DNA from: a virus
Taxonomy: Duplodnaviria > Heunggongvirae > Uroviricota > Caudoviricetes
Strand: one strand, 5' to 3'
IMG/VR virus record: IMGVR_UViG_2740892229_000013
DNA length: 38,746 bases
The position numbers and the translations under genes are program-made. Positions 1 through 38,746 of this stretch are shown here, one piece after another; position 1 is the stretch's first letter; each line of letters begins with the position of its first letter. The notes under the pieces were generated by a model that was not told where the DNA came from, did not search any database, and saw only the letters and a program-made list of their open reading frames with translations.

Positions 1-49
1 ATGTTATTACCCGATCTCGATGGAAGTTATTGAGTGATCTCCTTTCATG

Positions 50-420
50 AAAATACGCAATTACCCAAACAGCGAAGAAACACCTGAACCACTGAAACCC
101 CAACGAAGCCTGTTACCGCAAGGATTCTCTCAATCCCAAAAGACACGAAACAGAACAATCACGGGAAACGCCATTACCCAATACACGAATAACTACAAAA
201 GCCCTTCACACTCCAGACAAACAACTCAAACACAATAACGAAAGGATTCGCCCACCTGCCATTACTCCATACACGGAGAAGAACAATCACCAAAACGACG
301 AGAACACCCCATAGAAGAACCACCGCAAAACTAACGAAACCACATACACCGACAGAGAAAACAACACACCCAATTCACCAACAGAAATAGTCGCCGTATA
401 GAACGTTCTGGAAGGAGTGA
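50..420. other. A/C-rich, T-depleted low-complexity non-coding segment with degenerate internal repeats
   Basis: Plus strand is almost only A and C over about 370 nt; repeated motifs ACACGnnnnAGAACAATCAC (143-162, 271-290) and GCCATTACnCnATACACG (170-187, 258-275); no credible ORF. Confidence 0.5.
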
Positions 421-598
421 GCATTAACGCCTATAGAGAGGTTGAGACAGATAAAACACGAAGAAAACACAACATGTATAGCGAAGAAGCCAGGTATGTA
501 TAAGTGGAGAGGGAAGGAGGGGTGTCGCCTCCTTTTTCGTATTTATTCAACTCCTGATTTTATCCCCCGTAACACCCCTACGGTCAGCCTTCGGTCCA

Positions 599-746
599 TA
601 CAGGGAAAAGGCTGCATCCCGCTACAGAAACGGCTGGGTTGCCTTCGGGGAACGGCTGGAGGTTTTCAGGGAAACGGTCGAGTTGCCTGTGTGGATTTCG
701 GGAGAAGGCTCGATGCCGGTTCAGGAACGGTGGCGTACCGGTATAG
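599..746 (+). repeat. Array of about 6 direct repeats, core TCRGGGAAACGGCTG, spaced 20-32 bp (iteron-like)
   Basis: Copies begin near 599, 623, 643, 665, 697, 721; read directly from sequence. Confidence 0.6.
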
Positions 747-1092
747 CGAGAGGGAGAGTTGCGGCTACCCACCTGTAATGTGCGGGAAGAAGAGAGGCGC
801 TCACGTAGGCGGACTTGCTTACCGCTGGATTCCCTCTGAATGCCCAGCTACAGCGTAATTGTGCCAGACAGCCAACGGGTCACAATCGATTTCAGTAGGT
901 TTTCGGGGAGAGGATTATTCTGCCCACCAGCCACTTTCGGCCACTAAATCAGAATAATGTAAAAAGTGTACTCGGTACTGAACCTGAAAACTCACTGCCA
1001 AAACCACATTCACCGGAATAAAATCCTTTTTCGCCTGTGCGTTATTGCGATAATAACACCATCAAGAAAACATGTTGTTTAAGGATTGCTTT

Positions 1093-1422
1093 ATGTTTGC
1101 AAATATCGACATCAACCAAATCAAGAAATTAACTCAAAAAGAGTTTGATCAGTTTTATGAGTTAGAAGGTTGGTCTTCCACTCTGATCAATTCGCGGTGG
1201 GTGCTTGAGCTGATGACTCGTGATGACGCACCTGCTTTGATGATTTGCGACATGGGTGAAGATGCTGACTTTATGGATATGAGCGAATTTTGTGTGGACA
1301 CATACAACCGCAGCCAGAAGTACTACTTCACATGCGATAGCGAAAATGACGTGATTTCTAAGGTCTATCTTCACCTCGTCCAGCATTGGGACGTTCAGGA
1401 GTTTCTTGAGGTATTCGCGTAA
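1093..1422 (+). CDS. hypothetical early protein (about 110 aa)
   Basis: ORF track 1072..1422; AAGGA at 1081-1085 favours ATG 1093; alternative start 1072. Confidence 0.5.
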   Translation: MFANIDINQIKKLTQKEFDQFYELEGWSSTLINSRWVLELMTRDDAPALMICDMGEDADFMDMSEFCVDTYNRSQKYYFTCDSENDVISKVYLHLVQHWDVQEFLEVFA

Positions 1423-1551
1423 TCCCAACCAAAGCCAGCATTGCTGGCTTAATTTCTCTATAGCCGCTGGGAGGAACCTGCATATCGATCATGCACCTGA
1501 TCATTATGCTTTGTAGCCGTTTTCTTACTGGTATTATTTACGCCATTTAGA

Positions 1552-1564
1552 AAACAAGTTGTTT
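1552..1564. promoter_or_regulatory. 13-bp palindrome AAACAAGTTGTTT (candidate operator)
   Basis: Perfect 6+1+6 inverted repeat just upstream of RBS of gene 1576; identical copy at 12362-12374. Confidence 0.45.
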
Positions 1565-1575
1565 ACGGAGTTGTG

Positions 1576-1887
1576 ATGAAAAAATCATTGGTTCTTGGTC
1601 TGGACAAAGACCAGAAGAGAAAAGAGAAGCCTGCACTGGTTGCTCAATTAACTTTGCTAGACATCGTTGCCAATGGAACCTCTATTCGTCTGTTCCGTGA
1701 AACAGCGGTGTCTTTCGATAAAAACACCTTTACTCGTTATGTAATGAATGTTCGTCGCCAGCGTGGAAAAGGCTGGATGGCATTTCAAAGAATGTGGCCG
1801 GAACATCAGCTCGAACTGGCTTTGATGGAAGTTAACCGCGTGGCCCAGCAAGAAATTCAGAGAGCATCAGTGATGGCAATAGCCTGA
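1576..1887 (+). CDS. hypothetical early protein (103 aa)
   Basis: ORF track 1573..1887; GGAG 1567-1570 then ATG 1576; followed by terminator. Confidence 0.5.
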   Translation: MKKSLVLGLDKDQKRKEKPALVAQLTLLDIVANGTSIRLFRETAVSFDKNTFTRYVMNVRRQRGKGWMAFQRMWPEHQLELALMEVNRVAQQEIQRASVMAIA

Positions 1888-1921
1888 TAATGTGCAAGTG
1901 GTAATTAGTCGACAGTACGAC

Positions 1922-1949
1922 AGCCCCGCCATCCTTACGGGGCTTTTTT
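1922..1949 (+). terminator. rho-independent terminator
   Basis: GCCCCG (1923-1928) / CGGGGC (1938-1943) stem followed by TTTTTT. Confidence 0.7.
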
Positions 1950-1954
1950 GTATT

Positions 1955-1970
1955 GTAAGTACATACTTAC
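1955..1970. promoter_or_regulatory. palindrome GTAAGTACATACTTAC (AGTAAGTA-family site)
   Basis: Perfect inverted repeat GTAAGT/ACTTAC between terminator and gene 2014. Confidence 0.45.
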
Positions 1971-2013
1971 GATCATAGAATAGAAAAATAACCAAGACAC
2001 TACGGAGAGTGAA

Positions 2014-2409
2014 ATGACCGTTAAACGCGAAAAACTGACAGTTGATGTTTACTATGCCTCTGAAACCGCCGAAGGTAAGAATGTGGCAAAAATCACCGTT
2101 GTTACGTACAACACCGAAACTGGTGCCGAAGTCCAGGCCAGTACGATCGTGCGTAAAGGTGATGCCTCCGGCGGCGAGTACGCGACTCAATACCAGTCCA
2201 TTCTCGATGCAACTGACCCGCTGCTGCTGAAAATCGAGAACTACTTCCGCCAGGTTGATGAAGAGGTGTTTGAAACCATGATGAATATGGTTAACACCGT
2301 ATTCGCCTCCAGCCTGAACACCAGCACCACCTGGATTGGCCAGTACGGTCTGCGCATTACCTCTGGCATTCCTGCCGACACCTTAATCCCTGAAAGCGTA
2401 TTCGCTTAA
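2014..2409 (+). CDS. hypothetical early protein (131 aa)
   Basis: ORF with RBS ACGGAGAG 2002-2009; followed by terminator. Confidence 0.55.
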   Translation: MTVKREKLTVDVYYASETAEGKNVAKITVVTYNTETGAEVQASTIVRKGDASGGEYATQYQSILDATDPLLLKIENYFRQVDEEVFETMMNMVNTVFASSLNTSTTWIGQYGLRITSGIPADTLIPESVFA

Positions 2410-2418
2410 TCCTCTTTA

Positions 2419-2447
2419 AATGGCGCGCAAACCGCGCCATTTTATTA
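2419..2447 (+). terminator. rho-independent terminator
   Basis: AATGGCGCG (2419-2427) / CGCGCCATT (2433-2441) 9-bp stem then T-rich tail. Confidence 0.7.
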
Positions 2448-2455
2448 TGCCCGAT

Positions 2456-2466
2456 AACAATTTGTT
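2456..2466. promoter_or_regulatory. palindrome AACAATTTGTT (candidate operator)
   Basis: 5+1+5 inverted repeat upstream of gene 2527. Confidence 0.4.
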
Positions 2467-2526
2467 TTCTGCCTTATCTGATTTGTGAAAATGATTTCAC
2501 TGAAGCAACTTAATAAGGAAACCATC

Positions 2527-2901
2527 ATGGGACTTGATATCTATATCGAGACACAGCCTAAAAACGATCTGAATAACGAGGCATCCAGAAAGCAGGTTGC
2601 TTACTTCCGTAAGTTCAATGCGCTCGTTGGGTGGATGGAGCGCAACGTAGGTGAAGTCGAAAATTGTGAGCTTTTAGAATTAACGATGAATGACATTTGT
2701 CTTCTGAAAGCTCATTTGATGCACATAAACGAAAGCAATTGCGAAGAGTACTTGCCTACTCGGGAAGGTTTTTTCTTCGGCAGTCAGGAGTACGACGAAG
2801 GTTACTGGCATGACGTGGATAAGCTGAAAAAACTTGTGGAAGACCTGATCAGGAACCACGACTTTCACAATAACAGACTGACCTTCTGCGCCTGGTGGTA
2901 A
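2527..2901 (+). CDS. hypothetical early protein (about 124 aa)
   Basis: ORF track 2485..2901; AAGGA 2515-2519 favours ATG 2527. Confidence 0.5.
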   Translation: MGLDIYIETQPKNDLNNEASRKQVAYFRKFNALVGWMERNVGEVENCELLELTMNDICLLKAHLMHINESNCEEYLPTREGFFFGSQEYDEGYWHDVDKLKKLVEDLIRNHDFHNNRLTFCAWW

Positions 2902-2903
2902 AT

Positions 2904-3047
2904 ATGGGCGATTTCAAGAAACGCCTGAAGGAAAGAGCCGAGATGGTCAGAAAGCAAAACGCCTCTTCTGTCATCAGATACGCAAGGCAGTTTAGTCGCA
3001 ACAACAAATCAGTTGAGGAAAAGATCCTTAGCGTAATCGGTCGATAA
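2904..3047 (+). CDS. possible small basic protein (47 aa), not in ORF track
   Basis: ATG 2904 to TAA 3045-3047, K/R-rich; weak RBS; followed by hairpin 3051-3078. Confidence 0.25.
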   Translation: MGDFKKRLKERAEMVRKQNASSVIRYARQFSRNNKSVEEKILSVIGR

Positions 3048-3177
3048 TTATTAAGGCCATCAGCATTGGTGGCCTTAAATGACCATCCTGTTTCCCGCAG
3101 GCTAAAAACACCAACCTCTTACCTCCAGGCAACCGACAAACCCACCTGTTCCCGTCCGGCTACCGCAACTTTCCACT

Positions 3178-3204
3178 TTGACGCCTTATTCGTACAACGA
3201 TAAT
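3178..3204 (+). promoter_or_regulatory. candidate sigma70-like promoter (TTGACG, 15 nt spacer, GATAAT)
   Basis: -35-like 3178-3183 and -10-like 3199-3204 upstream of gene 3252; spacer shorter than optimal. Confidence 0.35.
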
Positions 3205-3219
3205 TAACACAAACAAGAA

Positions 3220-3230
3220 AACAATTTGTT
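3220..3230. promoter_or_regulatory. palindrome AACAATTTGTT (candidate operator)
   Basis: Same 11-mer as 2456-2466, upstream of gene 3252. Confidence 0.4.
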
Positions 3231-3251
3231 ATTTACGATAAGGAATTAATC

Positions 3252-3734
3252 ATGAATTTTATCGCTACTGTAAACGCACCCGCACATGGCAATATCGCTG
3301 TAACGTTCTCTGACATTGAAAAACGAGTACTTGGTGCATGGCGCGACAATGAGACGGTAGAACTGTCAGCACAAGAAAAATGCATTATTGCACGCGACAT
3401 CATTGGCAATCGTCGTTACTCGCGGGTATTTGAGAAAGCGTATGTGGTAAATTCTGGATTCGGAACGTTCGTCTTTCCGGTGCGCTCCGGGCGATTCTGC
3501 CAGTCCAAGCTGATTGAGTTCGCTACGCAGATTTCTGTCTGGATTAAAACTCAATCGTCGTTCAAATTTTCCGACGATGAAGCAGTATCGCAGGGGATGC
3601 GGATCGCCAACAATGCAATTAAATGCAAAAACATTACGTATACCGCTGGCGTTGATACATGGAAACTGTTTTGCGCTAACTTTATGCTGAATGTATACGC
3701 AAGCAACCGCATCCACATCCTTGATGGCGTGTAA
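3252..3734 (+). CDS. hypothetical early protein (160 aa)
   Basis: ORF with AAGGA RBS 3240-3244; terminator follows. Confidence 0.55.
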   Translation: MNFIATVNAPAHGNIAVTFSDIEKRVLGAWRDNETVELSAQEKCIIARDIIGNRRYSRVFEKAYVVNSGFGTFVFPVRSGRFCQSKLIEFATQISVWIKTQSSFKFSDDEAVSQGMRIANNAIKCKNITYTAGVDTWKLFCANFMLNVYASNRIHILDGV

Positions 3735-3736
3735 CT

Positions 3737-3768
3737 GAGAAGAGGGCCAGAAACGGCCCTTTCTCTAT
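3737..3768 (+). terminator. rho-independent terminator (imperfect stem)
   Basis: AGAGGGCC / GGCCCT stem with T-rich tail immediately after stop of gene 3252..3734. Confidence 0.55.
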
Positions 3769-3782
3769 AGCCACCAGCTGCC

Positions 3783-3946
3783 GCAGGGAAATTTTCAGAA
3801 ACGGCGAGGAACGTATTCGTGAGCCGACGGGGAACGGCCAGGATTTTTTCGGGAAACGGCTGCATTCGCCTTTGTGTAGAAAAAACATCGGGAAGCTGGT
3901 GGAATCCAACCAGCGGTTGTCGGACAGGTGAGCGGGGAAAATCATG
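3783..3946 (+). repeat. Second cluster of TTTTCRGGGAAACGGC-type direct repeats (iteron-like)
   Basis: Copies near 3783, 3795, 3826, 3848, 3887, 3930; same core as array at 599-746. Confidence 0.55.
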
Positions 3947-4272
3947 ATGACTTTCGTCGCCTGAGACATCCAGATTTCTTTCGTAGCGTAATCACATATG
4001 TGATTAAGTGGTGTGATTATGTGAAAAATCACGCGCACATAATACGCGAGCGGATACGGAACAAAACAAAATGCCGATCCGCGCCGACAATTAAACGCGG
4101 ATCACATAGCAAGAATAAAAGCCAATGATTAACCATACACCATAACGCAATATAACGCGATTTAAGCGCGTTAATGCGCTAAGTAATGGGTATGTACTGG
4201 TAAGGATATAGAAGCGCGTCTATGGCGTTATTTTGGCGCTTATTTTTATGTTGTTGGCTTGAGTCAAAGACA

Positions 4273-4853: not shown

Positions 4854-5504
4854 TTACGCTTTGAAAGCATCAGCTAAATAATTGTAGAAATCATTTTTAA
4901 TGAAGCGATATTGCTGAGTACCAGCTTTCGCACTCCCAGCTCCTTTGACTTTTTCAACAAGTCCAAGACGTTCGCAAAGATTGATCAACTGGTTGGCTTG
5001 AGTATAGCCAGCGTCCAATTTAATTTCACACGCTTTTTTAGCTTCATTCATTAAATCGAAAACAGCGCCATTGGTGAACGTGTCGATCTCGTCGTTAATC
5101 ATATCGATTAAAGCGAATACACGAGATCCTGACATATCAGCGATGGAATAAACGCATTTACCAGATTTAATTGATTTAACCAGATAAACCAGTTTTTCCA
5201 GAGAATAACTATTAGTCATTGCATCACGGAAAAATACTTCTGGCGCTTGTTTGCTTGCTTTAATCGCATAGTAGAAAACAGAGCATAATTTTTCGTCTTC
5301 TACTGCGTTTACGACGTTGTTGATGAAGTAAGCAAGTTTAGTGGTCGCAGCTTGCATATTTGCTTTGTCTGCTTTAGTGTGCGTACCATTTTTATAATGT
5401 TCGTTATATGTTTGAGTTGCCAGATCTGCTTTATCGCGCAGCTCGTCGGATACAATAGATGCAGCTTCAATGATGGACTTTTTAGAAATGATAATGTTAG
5501 CCAT
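4854..5504 (-). CDS. hypothetical protein (216 aa), AT-rich island
   Basis: ORF with AAGGAAA RBS; no recognisable catalytic motif by eye. Confidence 0.5.
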   Translation of the reverse strand: MANIIISKKSIIEAASIVSDELRDKADLATQTYNEHYKNGTHTKADKANMQAATTKLAYFINNVVNAVEDEKLCSVFYYAIKASKQAPEVFFRDAMTNSYSLEKLVYLVKSIKSGKCVYSIADMSGSRVFALIDMINDEIDTFTNGAVFDLMNEAKKACEIKLDAGYTQANQLINLCERLGLVEKVKGAGSAKAGTQQYRFIKNDFYNYLADAFKA

Positions 5505-6099: not shown

Positions 6100-6624
6100 T
6101 CAAAAAGGCAAAATTCGTTCAACCCAATCGAACAAAACAACTATTTTTCTACCGTTCTCGACACGTAGTGTAACCTGACAAGCATCTGCGCCTGCTGACA
6201 CCCCCTCAATTTCACGGCCATCCGCCATGTACACCCTTATAGATTTGTTTGCTTTGTAGGCTTGGTTGCAAATTGCAAAAAAATCGCGGCGTGATGGCCG
6301 ATTATCGACATAATCAGGGTGAACTGTTAGTCGACCTTTGAAATCGTGAGCGATACTGTCAACCACACCTGATTCAATTGTACTAATGCGTTCAAGTGGG
6401 AGCCTTATACGATTTTCTTTGTCAAAAGGGGCTGGGCAAAGGTCAACTTTGTTACGAGATGGCATGAGGCCATAAACGTACATGCAAAACGCCTGGCCAT
6501 CTTCGAGAGTGACCCTTACAGGAATTTGTTCTCTGCGCCAGAACATCAGTAGTTTTTCAACGTTAGTGTAATCTCGCGGCCAGAGTTCAGCTTGGATACC
6601 GTAGGTAATATCTTTGGTTGTCAT
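6100..6624 (-). CDS. hypothetical protein (about 174 aa)
   Basis: ORF track 6100..6702; ATG 6624 begins 4 nt after lipoprotein stop (coupled), so upstream extension rejected. Confidence 0.5.
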   Translation of the reverse strand: MTTKDITYGIQAELWPRDYTNVEKLLMFWRREQIPVRVTLEDGQAFCMYVYGLMPSRNKVDLCPAPFDKENRIRLPLERISTIESGVVDSIAHDFKGRLTVHPDYVDNRPSRRDFFAICNQAYKANKSIRVYMADGREIEGVSAGADACQVTLRVENGRKIVVLFDWVERILPF

Positions 6625-6628
6625 GTCA

Positions 6629-7093
6629 TCACAGAGTTGTTGGCAGAATGTCGATGTCACCAGAATTGCTGGTGAACACCCTGAACGCTTTTGTGTCTCC
6701 ATTCTTCAGAGTCGTTTCTCGCTCTTGACGAGCGGGGTTTAGAGCACATAAACCTGCACCTTCAAGAGATGCACCCACAATTAATTCTCCGGCATTTAAA
6801 TGGAAAGTCGCTTTTTCGCCTGTAGCCAGTTTTGCGACAGTTTCGCCATTGATGAAAATGGAAGCATCACATCCAGCTCCTACAAAACCTGTGTCTCTCA
6901 TTACCACCAACGTAGCTGGCGCTGCGCTTTGATACTTGAACACTTTGGCCTGCGGTGCTGGTTTGGCGTCATGGATTGATATTGGACGTGATTGGCACGC
7001 GGTAAGCATCAACACTGGTAACGTTAGTAGAGGGAGAAGCGAGTATTTCATGTTAGTTTTAGAACAGAAAGTGAACAGTATGGGAGACTTCAT
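6629..7093 (-). CDS. putative lipoprotein (lipobox LTAC)
   Basis: Hydrophobic N-terminus LLPLLTLPVLMLTAC-Q with lipobox; AGGGAGA RBS before ATG 7093; alternative start 7051. Confidence 0.6.
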   Translation of the reverse strand: MKSPILFTFCSKTNMKYSLLPLLTLPVLMLTACQSRPISIHDAKPAPQAKVFKYQSAAPATLVVMRDTGFVGAGCDASIFINGETVAKLATGEKATFHLNAGELIVGASLEGAGLCALNPARQERETTLKNGDTKAFRVFTSNSGDIDILPTTL

Positions 7094-7400: not shown

Positions 7401-8960
7401 CTAATCTCGTTTCAGAACTCCAAAATCGAATGCTCCATCAATAGGCAATACACCTTCTGCAAAGCCAGGTGTGGTGTCGATGATGTGTTTTCGCTCATAA
7501 GAGTGAGACAACAGGTATTTGTTGCTAATGTCAATGAAATCAGTGATAAAACACACGTTTGCCTGATTTTTTTTGGCTCGTAAGCCACGACCGACACGCT
7601 GTCTCATTTCAACTTCTGCTTTCCCACCACCAGCAAGAATGACCGCACCAACGCTTGGCACATCAACACCAACATCCAGAATAGTCGAGCCTATTAAAAC
7701 ATCTATTTCACCAGACGCTAAACTGTTCAGCTTTGCTTGCCTTGTCGTCTGGTTAGATTCCCCATAGATGAAATCAACTCTAAGACCTGACTCCTTCATC
7801 ATCTCCATCAGGATTTGCCCGTGGCGTTTAAGACGAACCAGAGTCATGCAGTTGAGTGAATGTTGCTTATAAAGCAATGCCTCGCGCACTATGGCCTCGT
7901 TACGTCCCAAATTATACACGATCCCCAACTGATAAGCCTTTTGGTAGGCGGTGCTCATACCAACTCTAAAATTGAGATGTTTGTTGGCAAGTTCGGCCTT
8001 GATTCTGGCCTCGTCTGGCTTGTAGGCAACTTTATGATAAAGGAAGTACGGCTTTGCCAGAATGCCTCGATCAATCAGGTACTTTTCTGTGACTTTAATT
8101 TCAATTCGCCCGGCCACCGCCATCAGGCGCATGTTGGCTTCCGTCGAATCCTTCATGAACGGCGTGGCTGTAAGCGCCAGACGATAGTCTGCGTTCACAC
8201 ATAATCTGGCGATGTCATAGAAATTTGAGCCTGAAGACTCATGCGCCTCTTCCAGAATAAGAAGAGAGACACTTGAAAGGAAGCGTTTCACCAACTCCCG
8301 ACGTTTGAGGTGGTAGCTTTTCTTATCTGGTGTTGCATCGCGTGGTGGTTCTTCGAGGAAACTTGCAAGAGTTTGAACTGTAGCGACGTTGATATGTCGT
8401 GATACCTGGAACTCACCCGAGCCAATGACTCCAACCTTTTGGTCTTTTAACCACGGTTCGCCATTTTTGGCGCGGTAGTCGATGGATCTCTGGAAGTTTT
8501 CGGCCATTTGAAACATCAGAACAGAGCGGGTTGTTAAAAATAATGTCATTCGACCGATACGTGCAGCTGCTTTGCAGGCAACATTAGATTTCCCGCCACC
8601 AGTAGCGATCTGCGCAATCATCATTCCCTCTCGAACCAGTGTTTCCACAGTCTGATCCTGATACGCATAATCAGGATTGTATGGGAATGGGTTAACCGCC
8701 GGATTTGGTTTTCCAAGCGCCGGGGCTTTGTCTTTGCGGATATGAACACATTTGATGCCCGCCTTGTTCAAGTTCGCCGCTACAGGCTTGGCAAAGCCTG
8801 CAGGGAACGAGTTTTTACTCCAGTTGAACATTGTGCTTGTGCCCTTCCAGTCGCCAGTCTCGACTTCGTAGCTCAACATCTGTTGCACCAGTTGCTTTAC
8901 CTTGTCATCTGCGCCAGAAATAAGCGCATTAACTGCGTTAGATACAATCCGAACAGTCAT
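7401..8960 (-). CDS. SF2 DNA/RNA helicase (DEAH-type)
   Basis: Walker A ATGGGKSN, DEAH-like LILEEAH, motif III LTATP, motif VI QRVGRGLR; strong RBS AAGGAAAGAGG. Confidence 0.85.
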   Translation of the reverse strand: MTVRIVSNAVNALISGADDKVKQLVQQMLSYEVETGDWKGTSTMFNWSKNSFPAGFAKPVAANLNKAGIKCVHIRKDKAPALGKPNPAVNPFPYNPDYAYQDQTVETLVREGMMIAQIATGGGKSNVACKAAARIGRMTLFLTTRSVLMFQMAENFQRSIDYRAKNGEPWLKDQKVGVIGSGEFQVSRHINVATVQTLASFLEEPPRDATPDKKSYHLKRRELVKRFLSSVSLLILEEAHESSGSNFYDIARLCVNADYRLALTATPFMKDSTEANMRLMAVAGRIEIKVTEKYLIDRGILAKPYFLYHKVAYKPDEARIKAELANKHLNFRVGMSTAYQKAYQLGIVYNLGRNEAIVREALLYKQHSLNCMTLVRLKRHGQILMEMMKESGLRVDFIYGESNQTTRQAKLNSLASGEIDVLIGSTILDVGVDVPSVGAVILAGGGKAEVEMRQRVGRGLRAKKNQANVCFITDFIDISNKYLLSHSYERKHIIDTTPGFAEGVLPIDGAFDFGVLKRD

Positions 8961-9042
8961 AAACCTCTTTCCTTAGTGCCTTTTGTATGTTATTTGGCTA
9001 TTATAATAAGTAAGTGATTACTTAGTGGATTGTAGCAATAAA
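8961..9042. promoter_or_regulatory. divergent promoter/operator region
   Basis: Between divergent helicase and ParB operons; contains TATAAT (9002-9007) and palindrome AAGTAAGTGATTACTT (9008-9023). Confidence 0.45.
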
Positions 9043-9726
9043 ATGGATGTAAAAATCACGATTTTGCAGGTTGATGTTGCCAACCTTCGCCCGAATACCT
9101 GGAACACCAATTCGGTTGGTGCGCAGAATTTTGAAAAACTGAAAGGTTCTATCGAAAAATTGGGCTTTTTTAAGCCAATTTTGGCTCGTGAACTTGAAGA
9201 TGGATTTTTTGAAATCCTCGGCGGCGAACATCGCTGGCGTGCCGCTATTGAGCAAGGAATTTCAACGGTTCCAGTGCTTTCTGTGGGCAAAATTAGCGAT
9301 GTCGTAGCTAAACAGATGTCACTGGTGGACAACGAGCGATACGGTGAAGACGACCAAATCGCATTGCAACGCTTCATTGAAGAAATTCAGTCAGAACTTG
9401 ACTATCAACTGTCTGAAATCGCCCCGTATGACGACGAAATCTCGATGGTTTTAGCAAAAGAGGCGGCAATCGACCTTGAAGCACTGGAGGCGTTGTCTCG
9501 TGGTAGTGATGAGCCTGTCGATACCGACAAACGAGAGAAAACCGAACGTGTGGGGGCGGAACATCAGACCATGCGCTTCAAAGTAACTTTCGATGCGTCA
9601 GATCGTGTTGCAGAAACCATAAAAAACATCATCAAAGAGCAGGCTATTAACACCGGTAATGAAATGGAGAACGCTGGTGAGGCTCTGGTGTGGCTGGTCG
9701 ACTACTACTACAAGGAGCGTATGTAA
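9043..9726 (+). CDS. ParB/Srx-like nuclease-domain protein 1 (possible RHH C-terminus)
   Basis: N-terminal ParB-type motif FEILGGEHRWRAAIEQG; ORF track starts GTG 9025, ATG 9043 preferred. Confidence 0.75.
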   Translation: MDVKITILQVDVANLRPNTWNTNSVGAQNFEKLKGSIEKLGFFKPILARELEDGFFEILGGEHRWRAAIEQGISTVPVLSVGKISDVVAKQMSLVDNERYGEDDQIALQRFIEEIQSELDYQLSEIAPYDDEISMVLAKEAAIDLEALEALSRGSDEPVDTDKREKTERVGAEHQTMRFKVTFDASDRVAETIKNIIKEQAINTGNEMENAGEALVWLVDYYYKERM

Positions 9727-10394
9727 TGACCAAAAAGTTTGAAATCGTATATCGCGACCCGGCAGATCTTATTCCCTATGAGATGAATGCCAAAAAGCAT
9801 GATGAACAGCAGATCCGAGATCTAGCCGCAGCCATTAAAAAGCGCGGATTTGACCAGCCAATTACGGTCGATAAGAACGACGTAATTATTACTGGCCACG
9901 GCCGCCGTGAGGCTGCAATTTTTGCTGGACTTGAGCGCGTACCGGTTATTGTTCGCGATGATCTCAGTGATGACGAGGTTCGTGCGAAGCGCCTTGAAGA
10001 TAACCGACTTGCCAGCATTGATTACGATGCAATTAAGCTACAGAAAGAGCTTGAGTCGCTTGTTCTGGACGATATCGAGGTTTTCGGCTTTGAAGAGCGT
10101 GAGTTGAATGTTCTCGTTGGCAGCATGACAGAAGAAATGGACACCGACTCGCTAGTTATCGATCTTGGCGAAGAAACTAAACGACAGAAGGATGAACACA
10201 CCGAGATCAGTCGTGAAGTTGCAGCGGAAGAAGTACGTGTTGTCGACGTATTGGGCTTTAAAACGCTTCCTGCTGGCTCTGCCATTGTTGTTGGTGATTT
10301 GCTTGCCCACATGGAAGAAATGACGGGAGAAAGCGGGGTAGACGCATTTGTGGCATATGCGGAGAAGATCTCTTCCGGGGAGATGGCTGTATGA
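9726..10394 (+). CDS. ParB/Srx-like nuclease-domain protein 2
   Basis: Motif ITGHGRREAAIFAG; ATG overlaps upstream stop (TAATG); ORF track start 9690 rejected. Confidence 0.75.
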   Translation: MTKKFEIVYRDPADLIPYEMNAKKHDEQQIRDLAAAIKKRGFDQPITVDKNDVIITGHGRREAAIFAGLERVPVIVRDDLSDDEVRAKRLEDNRLASIDYDAIKLQKELESLVLDDIEVFGFEERELNVLVGSMTEEMDTDSLVIDLGEETKRQKDEHTEISREVAAEEVRVVDVLGFKTLPAGSAIVVGDLLAHMEEMTGESGVDAFVAYAEKISSGEMAV

Positions 10395-11056
10395 GCAAAT
10401 ACATCATCAACGTATCGTTTCAGACACGCGTAAATAAAACCACGCGCACGTTGGAAATCGCTGAGTCGTTCGGGCTTGGCCTGGACGAAAAAGAGTGGAC
10501 GCTTTACGACAATCTGGAGCTGGAAGTGAAGCAGGGCGATGTGGTGTACATCACCGGCCAATCCGGTTCCGGCAAATCCGTTGTGCTGCGCGAGTTGCAA
10601 CGACAGATGAAGGATGAAGGGCTGTCTGTAGCCTCCATCGATGATTTTACCTTCGATAATGAGGTTAACGTCATCGATCAGTTGGGCAAAACGACCAGCG
10701 ATGCGCTTGGGTTGTTATCTATGGCTGGTCTGAACGATGCATATCTGTTTGTTCGCAAGCCTTCTGAAATGTCAGACGGTCAGAAATATCGTCTCAAGAT
10801 TGCCAAACTGATTGAGTCAGGCGCTAAAGTGTGGGCTGCTGACGAGTTCGGTGCTGTTCTAGACCGTGTAACCGCTCAGGTTGTGGCATCTAACCTCCAG
10901 CGTGCCGCTCGAAAGGTTGGTGCGACGGTAATGGTGGCGACGACTCACGAAGACCTGAAGAACGCGCTGCGCCCGGATATGCAGATCACCAAGCACTACA
11001 AAGAACGCGTGAAGGTGGAATATCACAATGGTAGTCATGATGAGGTTCATTTATGA
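10391..11056 (+). CDS. soluble ABC-type ATPase
   Basis: Walker A GQSGSGKS, ABC signature MSDGQ, Walker B VWAADE, H-loop ATTHED; no TM segments; ATGA overlap with upstream gene. Confidence 0.8.
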   Translation: MSKYIINVSFQTRVNKTTRTLEIAESFGLGLDEKEWTLYDNLELEVKQGDVVYITGQSGSGKSVVLRELQRQMKDEGLSVASIDDFTFDNEVNVIDQLGKTTSDALGLLSMAGLNDAYLFVRKPSEMSDGQKYRLKIAKLIESGAKVWAADEFGAVLDRVTAQVVASNLQRAARKVGATVMVATTHEDLKNALRPDMQITKHYKERVKVEYHNGSHDEVHL

Positions 11057-19187: not shown

Positions 19188-20020
19188 TGGCGCAGATCGA
19201 CTCGTATCGTAGCGGTGAAGCTGTTTCTCTTTCATTTGCCTTCAACGTGCTGGATATCGAATCTGCCACCTACACAGTAAAGGACAGCACCGGGGCTATT
19301 CTCGTTGATGGCGAGCCGCTAGAAATTACCAACGGTCAAATGTCGATTCCGGTTGTCGTGTCGGCTGAATATAACCAGCTCTCTGAGAAAGAGCGAGATC
19401 TGCGGTACGTCATTGTGAAGGCTGTTGCATCGGGCCTGACGCATGAAGAGCGTCAAATGTATGTTCTGCTGAATACTTTTGAACTGTCGATACCAGAACA
19501 GTCGTTTGCAACTGTCGCTGATGCTCAAATGCAGGCGATCGATATGCTGAATGGGGACACTTTGCTGTCGGATGGTGAAGGCTTAATGCGCAAGCGTCTC
19601 ATTGAGGCTACCAGACGAATTAAAACTTTACCGTTCTCAATCCGCAAAATTCTACGTATCGACTTTGACCGATACGATCGCCCTCAAAATATGCTGAATG
19701 TGTATGACATTCCGTGGGGAGCAGATGGAGCGTACCGGCATGATTTAGTCGATTGGGAAAAGATGACGCAGGAGAAGTTTGAAGAGTTCCCTGACTACTT
19801 CAAAGAAGCGTTGATGCTTGCCGTTGTCAACGAAGCGTGTGAGATCGCAAATGGCAATGATGTAGCCGCAGCACGAGAGGATGGCATTTTGTCAGAGTCC
19901 ATCGGTGAAACAACCAACATGTACCGTACCGGTAAAGCTGCAAACGTGCATGTGGCTCGTAGTACCTGGCGCTTGCTGGTCAGTTACATCAACAACCGTA
20001 TGATTGTTCGCCGTGCGTAA
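19187..20020 (+). CDS. hypothetical virion protein (277 aa)
   Basis: ATG overlaps upstream stop (TAATG). Confidence 0.45.
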   Translation: MAQIDSYRSGEAVSLSFAFNVLDIESATYTVKDSTGAILVDGEPLEITNGQMSIPVVVSAEYNQLSEKERDLRYVIVKAVASGLTHEERQMYVLLNTFELSIPEQSFATVADAQMQAIDMLNGDTLLSDGEGLMRKRLIEATRRIKTLPFSIRKILRIDFDRYDRPQNMLNVYDIPWGADGAYRHDLVDWEKMTQEKFEEFPDYFKEALMLAVVNEACEIANGNDVAAAREDGILSESIGETTNMYRTGKAANVHVARSTWRLLVSYINNRMIVRRA

Positions 20021-20099
20021 CGCCAGTCGCATTATTTACTTTTGGTCTAAAGGGTTTTTGGCCAGTAATGAGAGCGACCGACAACAACAGGGAGAGAGC

Positions 20100-35772: not shown

Positions 35773-38746
35773 ATGGCAGTAAAAATTTCAGGTGTACTGA
35801 AAGACGGCACAGGAAAACCGGTACAGAACTGCACAATCCAGCTGAAAGCAAAACGTAACAGTACCACGGTGGTGGTGAACACGCTGGCATCTGAAAATCC
35901 GGATGAAGCCGGGCGTTACAGTATGGACGTTGAGTACGGTCAGTACAGCGTTATTCTGTTGGTGGAAGGATTCCCGCCGTCACATGCCGGGACCATCACA
36001 GTGTATGAAGATTCCCGACCCGGTACGCTGAATGATTTTCTCGGTGCCATGACGGAGGATGATGCCCGTCCGGAGGCACTGCGCCGTTTTGAACTGATGG
36101 TGGAAGAGGTGGCGCGTAACGCGTCCGCGGTGGCACAGAACACGGCAGCCGCGAAGAAGTCAGCCAGCGATGCCGGCACATCAGCCCGTGAGGCGGCAAC
36201 CCATGCGACTGATGCTGCAGGCTCAGCACGTGCAGCCAGCACATCAGCCGGGCAGGCCGCGACGTCGGCTCAGTCAGCGTCTTCCAGCGCAGGAACGGCA
36301 TCAACAAAGGCTACTGAAGCATCAAAAAGTGCTGCCGCTGCAGAGTCCTCAAAAAGCGCGGCGGCCACCAGTNNNNNNNNNNCGCAGCCAGCACGTCAGC
36401 CGGACAGGCCGCGTCGTCGGCTCAGTCAGCGACTTCCAGCGCAGGAACGGCATCAACAAAGGCCACTGAAGCATCAAAAAGTGCTGCCGCTGCAGAGTCC
36501 TCAAAAAGCGCGGCAGCTACCAGTGCCAGTGCCGCGAAAACGTCAGAAACGAATGCGGCAGCGTCACAACAATCAGCAGCCACTTCTGCATCCACCGCGA
36601 CTACGAAAGCGTCAGAAGCTGCCACCTCAGCCCGGGATGCGGCGGCTTCAAAAGAGGCGGCAAAATCATCAGAAACGAACGCATCCTCGAGCGCCAGTAG
36701 CGCAGCTTCCTCGGCAACAGCGGCAGGAAATTCCGCGAAGGCGGCAAAAACGTCAGAGACGAACGCCAGGTCTTCTGAAACGGCAGCGGGACAGAGCGCC
36801 TCGGCTGCGGCAGGCNNNNNNNNNNGGCAGCGTCACAAAAATCTGCAGCCACTTCTGCATCCACCGCGACCACAAAGGCGTCAGAAGCTGCCATCTCAGC
36901 CCGGGATGCGGCGGCCTCAAAAGAGGCAGCGAAATCATCAGAAACGAACGCATCATCAAGTGCCAGTAGTGCAGCTTCCTCGGCAACGGCGGCAGCAAAT
37001 TCTGCGAAGGCGGCAAAAACGTCCGAGACGAACGCCAAGGCTTCTGAAACGGCAGCGGGACAGAGCGCCTCAGCTGCGGCAGGCTCAAAAACAGCGGCTG
37101 CATTATCTGCCAGTGCCGCGTCAACAAGTGCCGGGCAGGCCTCAGCCAGTGCCACCGCCGCCGGAAAATCGGCAGAAAGTGCTGCATCGTCTGCTTCAAC
37201 AGCCACAACGAATGCTGGCGAAGCCGCTGTACAGGCCAGCGCAGCAGCGAGGTCAGCTTCCGCAGCGAAGACATCCGAGACGAACGCGAAAGCGTCGGAA
37301 ACCAGCGCAGAATCCTCAAAAACGGCAGCGGCATCGTCCGCCAGTTCGGCGGCGTCATCGGCATCATCGGCGTCTGCTTCAAAAGATGAGGCGACCAGAC
37401 AGGCGTCAGCAGCGAAGAGCAGCGCCACGACGGCATCCACGAAAGCAACAGAGGCGGCAGGCAGTGCGACGGCGGCAGCACAGAGCAAAAGTACGGCGGA
37501 ATCCGCGGCAACGCGCGCCGAGACAGCGGCAAAACGGGCAGAGGATATTGCATCCGTCGTGGCGCTTGAGGATGCGAGCACGACGAAAAAGGGGGTAGTA
37601 CAGCTCAGCAGTGCGACCAACAGTACGTCTGAAACGCTGGCGGCAACGCCAAAGGCAGTAAAATCAGCCTATGACAATGCAGAGAAACGTCTGCAGAAAG
37701 ACCAGAACGGCGCTGATATACCCGACAAGGACCGCTTCCTGAGTAACATTAATGTTTACAGCAAAGGTGAAGTGGATCAGAAAAAGGGGATGCGATACGT
37801 TGTGGTAAATGCCCCGGCGGGTGTCCAGGAAGGTAAATATTATCCGTTAGTGATAAAAAGGAATGACAGCCATCGGGCATCCCGCGTTGTCATTTCAACG
37901 CCAAGTCGCTCAGCTAATCACAGAATGAATAATTGTGAGTTTAATGGTTTTGTTTGCGCAGGCGGCTGGACGGACCGGGGTAGCTATGCCTGTGGTATGT
38001 TCTGGGCTTATTCAACATCGGAACGCGCTATTCATTCCATTCTGATGAGTAATAAAGGCGATACCGTAGACAGCGTATTCTATATAGAAGGTGGGGCATT
38101 TCCCGTAGAGGTCTTTTTAGAAGAAGGTCTCTCCGTTACTGCACCTGCTTCTGATTATATTGTTGCTGAAACGACTTATAAATTTGGCGCAACTGATCCT
38201 TATTCTGAATCAGTTGCGGTAAATTTAATTTTAGATTTTAAACAAGGTAATGGATTTTATAGTTCATATCCTGTTTTGAGTAAGTCAGACATTAGCGGGA
38301 ATAAGATTTACGCTAATGATGAAGTTATTGTCCGTAGTCAGAACGCGTTAAGGATGATTGCAGGTGATTACGGTGTCATATGGCGAAATGATGGAGCAAA
38401 TACTTACTTGCTCATGACTGATAAAGGCGACCAGTACGGTGGCTGGAACGGTCTTCGACCATTTGCAGTAAATAACGCAACAGGTGAAGTGACGATCAAT
38501 ACACCACTTAATTCTCCTAAGGGGATTAAGGGAAATTCTGATACAGCTACGAAACTTCAGACAGCAATAAAAATATCTGGTGTTTCGTTTGATGGTTCTA
38601 CTGATATCACTTTAACCGCTGCGCATGTTGCTGCTTTTGCCAGAAGAGCAACGGATACGTATGCCGATGCGGATGGGGGCGTTCCATGGAATGCCGAATC
38701 AGGCGCTTACAATGTCACCCGCTCTGGCGACAGCTATATTCTGGTT
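35773..38746 (+). CDS. stf: lambda Stf-like side tail fibre, interrupted by two N gaps, 3-prime partial
   Basis: N-terminus MAVKISGVLKDGTGKPVQNCTIQLKAKRNSTTVVVN matches lambda Stf as recalled; frame 1 to 36372, frame 0 for 36384-36815, frame 2 from 36827 to window end with no stop. Confidence 0.8.
36373..36382. other. run of 10 N (assembly/scaffold gap 2)
   Basis: Literal n characters; flanks are about 93 percent identical redundant copies. Confidence 0.95.
36816..36825. other. run of 10 N (assembly/scaffold gap 3)
   Basis: Literal n characters; sequence after gap restarts about 270 bp upstream in the repeat unit. Confidence 0.95.

Follow-up and report, generated by a model that had tools for sequence, protein, structure and literature searches.

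Two conserved arrays of GGrAAmGG repeats bracket a small-gene operon in SSU5/pHCM2-type phage-plasmids

A 38,746-nt stretch of viral DNA (hereafter the window) carries two arrays of GGGAAACGG-type sites: array 1, which is non-coding and has six of them, and a partner array 3.2 kb off. The repeats are real, conserved, non-coding and specific. We infer that they act at the DNA level, most probably as arrays of protein-binding sites (the four readings of this kind taken together). The function that we favour would be related to replication and distinct from that of RepA (probability of roughly 0.4), with an architectural or regulatory role, action as RNA, and partition or tethering following in that order. 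The initial annotation had suggested either replication-origin iterons or regulator-binding sites; either may hold, the second no less than the first.

SSU5/pHCM2-like phage-plasmids are common in clinical Enterobacteriaceae and carry resistance genes, and the only replicon annotated on them is the RepA plasmid replicon. A conserved pair of arrays distinct from the RepA iterons is an unstudied control point. Among its possible roles are those of a lytic origin, of a determinant of copy number or incompatibility, and of a boundary to an early or cargo operon; the function of the arrays, once known, would help in typing these elements, predicting their incompatibility, and engineering or curing them.

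RESULTS

The window and its two arrays

The window comes from a phage-plasmid of the SSU5/pHCM2 type. From base 55 onward it matches Escherichia phage-plasmids of that type (97% identity to Cyrano and 98% to CMS-2020a); plasmid NZ_CP027358.1 is 100% identical to it over positions 400-1100, and a single blastn search found the array-1 region in 718 PLSDB plasmids. Array 1 is located in an intergenic stretch of 1-1.5 kb with a small-gene operon downstream. The features referred to below are as follows:

442..858, plus strand: ORF of 138 aa overlapping array 1; not a gene
511..538, plus strand: conserved hairpin, 60 nt ahead of array 1; in the E. coli lineage it resembles a terminator
545..573, plus strand: bipartite block ATTCAAs-N12-14-CyCCCGTAAC, directly upstream of array 1
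600..734, plus strand: array 1, made of six direct repeats whose 16-mers are at 600, 622, 644, 666, 697 and 719
1072..3734, plus strand: small-gene operon between the two arrays (116, 104, 131, 138, 50 and 160 aa)
3744..3863, plus strand: array 2, with the motif and orientation of array 1; strong units at 3793-3808, 3826-3841 and 3848-3863
4854..5504, minus strand: 216-aa candidate binder (PHROG 1513); its N-terminal helices are long and its C-terminal domain is winged-helix-like
6100..6702, minus strand: FljA-family protein (Pfam E = 2.5e-84, full-length, with a weak Hfq-like C-terminus)

The six units of array 1 lie on the same strand and follow the consensus yCrGGrAAmGGCTG, with a unit core of GGrAAmGG(C/T)(T/C)G and successive spacings of 22, 22, 22, 31 and 22 bp. 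Across the window we counted 15 matches to GGGAAACGGCTG with at most two mismatches, where 2.9 ± 1.7 would be expected, a number that not one of 100 shuffles reached; four of the 15 (at 603, 625, 647 and 669) succeed each other in exact 22-bp steps. Anchoring on A[AC]GG brought in two further degenerate units, giving anchors at 608, 630, 652, 674, 705 and 727. Six direct copies of a degenerate motif, about two helical turns apart, are what the initial annotation had described, and its unit starts (599, 623, 643, 665, 697 and 721) prove correct to 1-2 nt.

The second cluster that it had placed at 3783-3946 is also real. Array 2 gave position-weight-matrix matches at 3793, 3826 and 3848 together with partial copies at ~3785 and ~3808; the units within 3785-3863 are spaced by about 11, 11, 22 and 22 bp. 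One motif copy (CAGAAACGGCC) falls within the terminator hairpin of the operon at 3744-3759, where it occupies the loop and the 3' arm. Most sites in the arrays are two or three helical turns apart and would thus lie on one face of the helix. When the whole of pHCM2 (106.5 kb) was scanned with the position weight matrix, motif clusters appeared only at the two homologous loci, at 70.9 and 74.5 kb, all on one strand. No earlier description of these repeats was found in the searchable literature.

Ten Chi sequences (GCTGGTGG) were counted in the window against 0.9 expected (among them 924, 3771 and 7627 on the minus strand and 3895 and 12111 on the plus strand). The copies beside the two arrays, at 924 and 3771, are also found in relatives.

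Conservation of the arrays among relatives

Both arrays are kept in every relative examined, a set that spans elements of E. coli, Klebsiella, Salmonella, Enterobacter and Citrobacter and a Logan metagenome lineage with proteins ~51% identical. We aligned diverse relatives in sets of 8 and 17 (E. coli, Salmonella SSU5 and pHCM2, Citrobacter, Enterobacter, Klebsiella and IMG/VR contigs) and found that spacers drift while cores stay, mean column conservation being 0.89 for cores versus 0.75 for spacers (Mann-Whitney p = 2e-7). Each of 48 distinct relatives has 4-7 array-1 units; the 22-bp spacing was counted 162 times and the 31-bp spacing 32 times, and these counts are not independent, the sequences being related. 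Exactly one 22-nt unit is missing in two relatives, as clean unit deletions. Array 2 is as conserved as array 1; it is kept in the eight lineages of alignment A3 and in L114, which diverges most among the relatives found (its 160-aa protein has 51% identity). In L114 GGGAAACGG is present in both arrays with spacings of 36, 28, 24 and 34. Since the motif is kept there at irregular distances, it is the constrained feature, whereas the 22-bp phasing is typical and not universal, and helical phasing is not obligatory.

Every lineage has a different set of genes between the arrays, and the bracketed region thus behaves as a cargo hotspot. A plasmid-only derivative of 62 kb (L117, E. albertii p3RM15113) has lost its virion genes and retains both arrays; a RelE/ParE toxin-antitoxin pair is inserted between them (19504-20026). 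Retention of the module in this derivative, together with the variable genes between the arrays, fits a maintenance or boundary element and not a virion function.

The genes of the bracketed operon are called early-type. Searches of Pfam, NCBIfam, PADLOC and PDB sequences returned no function for its small proteins or for the neighbouring ones, and its 160-aa and 104-aa proteins are only 53-80% identical. The palindrome AAACAAnTTGTTT precedes each main operon gene. The palindrome AAGAAAACAAnTTGTTT has 13 occurrences against 0.9 expected, just upstream of the start codons of several operons (window 1064, 1548, 2451, 3215, 6131, 12333 and 12358; in pHCM2 upstream of parA, L009 ~35220), and is probably either an operator at which a global phage-plasmid regulator binds or a promoter element specific to the phage.

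A proposed replication-related binding array distinct from RepA

We propose that arrays 1 and 2 are clusters of GGrAAmGG sites, in one orientation, for a single sequence-specific protein that would be encoded by SSU5/pHCM2-type phage-plasmids or be common to their hosts. Several copies of the protein would load side by side on one helix face, and the early small-gene operon would come to be flanked by a nucleoprotein complex at either end. The arrays would then serve as an iteron-type cis element apart from the RepA origin, either as a secondary or lytic origin or as a replication-control site. By analogy with incC/incA or ori/crr, the two could pair. The likeliest binder would be the conserved 216-aa winged-helix protein encoded near array 2.

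This proposal draws on motif clustering far above chance with exact 22-bp spacing, on cores preserved across genera and in the Logan lineage while spacers diverge, on the two-locus, one-strand distribution in pHCM2, on the recurrence of the 22- and 31-bp steps with 4-7 units and clean unit deletions, and on retention of the module in the plasmid-only derivative. It also draws on the lack of an RNA family or fold signal, on the position of array 1 outside the operon mRNA in the Cyrano lysogen (see below), on the winged-helix protein encoded ~1 kb from array 2, and on the 22-bp repeats with almost this core that form origins in unrelated prophages. Against it stand the irregular spacing in L114, the absence of replication genes and DnaA boxes near the arrays, an uninformative GC skew, the floor-level expression of the 216-aa gene in lysogens, and the indirect nature of the link between protein and sites.

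The RepA origin itself lies elsewhere. In pHCM2, repA (104,758-105,813) has iterons on both sides (104.2-106.3 kb) of the type wAACCACTrTAGAGAG / AACCACTGTAGAGAG with 21-bp spacing. They are ~30 kb from the arrays and unrelated in sequence to GGrAAmGG, so the array is not the plasmid origin. The earlier suggestion of an iteron or regulator array is sustained in that the repeats are non-coding and uniformly oriented, with cores better conserved than spacers, 22/31-bp spacing in most lineages, no detectable RNA structure and next to no transcription in a lysogen, but they are not iterons of the known initiator RepA. The pHCM2 RepA iteron core CTATAGAG has three copies in the window, at 431 (plus), 1456 (minus) and 3763 (minus), against 0.5 expected; all are in the first 3.8 kb, and two immediately follow terminator hairpins.

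As in iteron origins, direct repeats recur at about two helical turns (22 bp dominant in 48 relatives, irregular in L114). However, they do not accompany a Rep of their own: no initiator, helicase loader or replication gene stands beside the array, and the phage primase, helicase and polymerase are tens of kb away. No DnaA box (up to one mismatch) was found within 2 kb of either array. The only A+T-rich stretch near array 1 is ~20 bp long (541-563, 74% A+T), and past array 2, at a distance of 200-400 bp, comes an A+T-rich zone that includes a GATC pair. The GC skew of pHCM2 is monotonic and driven by gene orientation; it gives no origin signal and, following gene orientation as it does, is uninformative on this point.

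Iteron clusters of theta-replicating plasmids and plasmid prophages offer the closest comparison. P1 incC/incA, F incB/incC, the R6K gamma 22-bp iterons and RepFIB have same-orientation direct repeats spaced by ~22 bp; like the arrays, such clusters may lie as a pair a few kb apart with genes between them, and they combine conserved cores with variable spacers and a variable number of units. Unlike them, the arrays have no rep gene between or beside them and no DnaA boxes, the element's own RepA uses another iteron, and the conserved core covers only ~9-12 of the 22 bp. P4 ori and crr, SPP1 oriL/oriR, and EBV oriP FR and DS likewise place the sites of one protein in two separated clusters, an analogy of layout only, with no sequence or protein homology found.

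A scan of the collection for three phased GGNAANGG units recovered unrelated prophages (L091, L095 and L105) with 22-bp repeats CCGAATGGAAACGGC inside a replication-initiation-O-like gene, followed by a GATC/A+T-rich stretch. Thus, a motif and spacing of this type do serve as iterons elsewhere. The core of these lambda-type origins, GGAAACGG, is nearly identical to the array core and the period is also 22 bp; their repeats are inside the initiator coding sequence, whereas those of SSU5-type elements are intergenic, and the likeness may be coincidental. In the window the array is non-coding, and no O-like homologue was found: an O-like initiator was rejected after tblastn with two O-like proteins gave nothing in the window or pHCM2, and hhalign detected no profile similarity between the 216-aa protein and an O-like protein. 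Transposon ends with Tn7/Mu-type 22-bp sites were also rejected, the arrays being direct and not inverted, with no transposase.

The element is described as working like an iteron or centromere-type binding array without being a member of a named family, because the defining tests for iteron origins, centromeres and RNA sponges fail. A bolder and rather unlikely extension is that the two GGrAAmGG arrays and the dedicated coiled-coil/winged-helix family of the 216-aa protein (PHROG 1513) form a second, previously unrecognised cis-acting system, RepA-independent and bracketing a swappable cargo operon, that would serve as a lytic origin or would switch replication/segregation between the plasmid and phage modes of life.

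Candidate binding proteins

The 216-aa protein is unusually well conserved (82-87% identity across genera, against the 53-80% of the two operon proteins), and its gene is ~1 kb from array 2. In its AF2 model (pLDDT 82) residues 130-201 fold as H-E-H-H-E-E, and Foldseek matched the model to the Orc1/Cdc6 WH domain, MukE/F, PadR/LmrR, TubR and RTP (E 0.008-0.15). Its invariant residues are Y167-T-Q-x-N-Q-L ... E-R-L-G; that an invariant putative recognition helix parallels an invariant array motif is suggestive, not proof. From the fold, conservation and location of this protein we infer that it is the likeliest array binder. Its gene is at the expression floor in Cyrano lysogens (PMC9928086 S1 Table), which fits a lytic role but deprives the arrays of a binder in the plasmid state.

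Other nearby candidates for DNA or RNA binding are the FljA-family protein and two ParB_N proteins (9025-10394). The FljA family is known for translational repression of fliC mRNA, and FljA as repressor of phase-1 flagellin. The FljA-family gene is present in all lineages, including those of non-flagellated Klebsiella; it is expressed in Cyrano lysogens and rises in macrophages (PMC9928086 S1 Table). After the adjacent ParB_N proteins (233 and 234 aa) comes an ABC-type ATPase (221 aa), all within 9025-11056, and this trio, divergent from a DEAD/ResIII helicase (7401-8960), occurs in all lineages.

Possible looping or regulation of the bracketed operon

The best-surviving alternative, still an unlikely one, is that a protein bound to both arrays loops, insulates or silences the 3-kb early operon, keeping it off in lysogeny or timing it, with no role in replication. 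The layout speaks for this: the arrays bracket the operon in every lineage, array 2 begins at the operon terminator, the cargo between the arrays is variable (with the toxin-antitoxin insertion in one plasmid), and operon expression in Cyrano is condition-dependent. However, each gene has its own operator-like palindrome AAACAAnTTGTTT, which recurs at other promoters, that of parA in pHCM2 among them; depending on the lineage, the first promoter is ~300 to ~500 bp from array 1; and no regulator has been tied to the motif.

RNA-level reading and the transcription of the array region

Somewhat less probable again is that the motifs work in a leader or trailer transcript, where the FljA-family protein (6100-6702) or host CsrA would bind them and control termination, stability or translation, or itself be titrated. 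Several features favour this. Every unit is oriented with operon transcription, the operon's terminator owes its loop and 3' arm to one motif copy, and a covarying hairpin specific to the plus strand lies upstream of array 1, with a strong promoter (TTGACG-17-TTATAC) further upstream in relatives. The FljA-family gene is retained even where flagella are lacking and is expressed in lysogens, array 2 shares 12 nt with the E. coli fliC leader, and the irregular spacing in L114 suits RNA better than phased DNA.

In the hairpin at 511-538, AU/GC and UA/GC pairs covary among 17 relatives and four positions are mostly G-U; with several G-U pairs, it folds only as plus-strand RNA. The T-run after it is found in the E. 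coli lineage only. The bipartite block at 545-573 consists of invariant columns in alignments A1 and A2, has a spacer of 74% A+T and is present in L079/L083 and L114; it may be promoter-like, bind a protein or offer a short stretch for unwinding.

Further upstream, window 55-420 is noncoding, with an A/C-rich, G/T-poor plus strand (GC skew ~-0.45, AT skew +0.5 to +0.68) and at least six copies of GCCATTACYC. In relatives the stretch extends upstream (L003 5370-6000, L004 5240-5900) and begins at the sigma70-like promoter mentioned above (L003 ~5332), ~770 nt from the hairpin at 511-538. Possibly this is an unstructured leader or ncRNA, and its composition would be ideal for Rho loading. In unrelated E. 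coli phages (PhiR12 group), the tail-fibre-assembly genes have a 3' end identical to approximately the first 59 bases of the window (1-59); these bases are absent from Cyrano at the junction, which indicates a mosaic joint at the start of the A/C-rich region.

Published RNA-seq of E. coli LF82, which carries the close relative Cyrano as a lysogen, argues against the RNA-level reading. Over five conditions CYRAN_104 (window ~498-902) has log2(5+FPKM) values of 2.6-4.7, the floor being 2.32, while CYRAN_105 and CYRAN_111, the first and last operon genes, reach 7.4-7.8 (PMC9928086 S1 Table). With CYRAN_104 near the floor while the operon is on, array 1 lies outside the operon mRNA in the plasmid state, as far as these lysogen data go.

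Folding likewise gave no signal. Single-sequence folds of both strands in three lineages yielded no stable structure over the array (z-scores versus shuffles of -1.3 and -0.4 for the two window strands, -0.4 for pHCM2 and +1.7 for L114), and RNAalifold on 17 sequences gave a weak consensus of -18.9 kcal/mol with a covariation term of -1.4. Rfam produced no match over either array at the gathering score or at E <= 10, CsrB/Rsm-type families included. A structured or protein-sponge ncRNA class was rejected on the lack of an Rfam family and a fold and on the near-floor level of the array-1 interval in the lysogen.

CsrA needs GGA. The conserved positions of the motif are AA-N-GG, not GGA, and some units have no GGA; its density (7 in 135 nt) is not above the expectation from composition, and a CsrA sponge was rejected.

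For fliC, 5' leaders from 16 species were compared. Window 3821-3834 and the E. coli leader (L116 243-254) share a 12-nt identity, TGAGCCGACGGG, which is not significant in an unbiased scan; ACGGCGA, 13 nt upstream of TGAGCCGACGGG, is also common to array 2 and this leader, and Enterobacter-type elements and Enterobacter fliC both read CCGAAGGG where E. coli has TGAGCCGACGGG. Despite the 12-nt identity and the lineage-matched C/A difference, the unbiased local-alignment scan put the likeness at chance level (array 2 scored 24 versus 26 for the best off-target, and other lineages showed none), and the FljA/fliC link was rejected.

Possible partition or tethering

Of slightly lower standing still, and doubtful, is a centromere-like or tethering function in the manner of parC1/parC2, tubC or EBV FR, by which the sites would hold or segregate a low-copy plasmid prophage. 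R1 parC, pB171 parC1/parC2 and pBtoxis tubC resemble the arrays in their short direct repeats, arranged in two blocks flanking an operon. Two direct-repeat clusters flank genes here as well, the centromere-binding TubR is among the Foldseek winged-helix matches, two ParB_N proteins are encoded at 9025-10394, and the module is retained in the plasmid-only derivative; a TubR-like winged-helix binder would, on the predicted fold, be structurally compatible with the arrays. Unlike plasmid centromeres, however, the arrays neither adjoin nor flank an operon for a partition NTPase and a centromere-binding protein: the flanked genes encode products of 50-160 aa with no cognate NTPase between or beside the arrays, and the neighbouring ATPase is ABC-type, not ParA-type. 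The ParA-type ATPase operon is 35-40 kb away, and in pHCM2 the region upstream of it is free of the motif.

Improbable readings: extra RepA iterons and coding potential

That the arrays are extra iterons of RepA (IncFIB/rep_cluster_488), serving as a remote copy-number control locus, is very improbable. Their ~22-bp spacing is in favour, and second iteron clusters are often present on iteron plasmids; however, the RepA iterons wAACCACTrTAGAGAG share nothing with GGrAAmGG, and sequence comparison largely refutes the idea.

The least probable reading of all, with next to no chance, is that the region encodes a protein (ORF 442-858) and the repeats a repetitive peptide: the frame is open in the E. 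coli and Salmonella lineages and two GenBank phage records annotate ORFs there (CYRAN_104 in Cyrano, SSU5_109 in SSU5), yet stops interrupt each of the three plus frames in the Klebsiella lineage, the 22-nt unit deletions shift the reading frame, no plus or minus frame is open across all lineages, Pfam and PHROG gave no match, PGAP called no gene over array 1 in any RefSeq plasmid examined, and conservation tracks the 22-nt DNA unit, not codons. The two annotated ORFs are best treated as spurious. The initial annotation was right that 442-858 looks non-coding, and the frame is not preserved among homologues; it erred in calling this the sole overlapping ORF, as a 62-aa minus-strand ORF (584-772), its frame not conserved, also overlaps array 1.

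Other repeats in the window

The 600-bp non-coding region beyond array 2 is 83% conserved and full of bidirectional terminators. Downstream of array 2 a conserved GATC pair (GCGGATCAC) is found (window 4070-4260, L004 10090-10180, L114 6730-6810), followed by an A+T-rich block of 8-10-bp repeats, TAAAACGC / TATAACGC / CTAAACTG, with ten tandem units in L114; these make up a second repeat family, different from the array motif. At the other end of the window, positions 36555-37084 hold a 269-bp tandem duplication (two copies, 88% match) in an Ala/Ser-rich, tail-fibre-like coding region.
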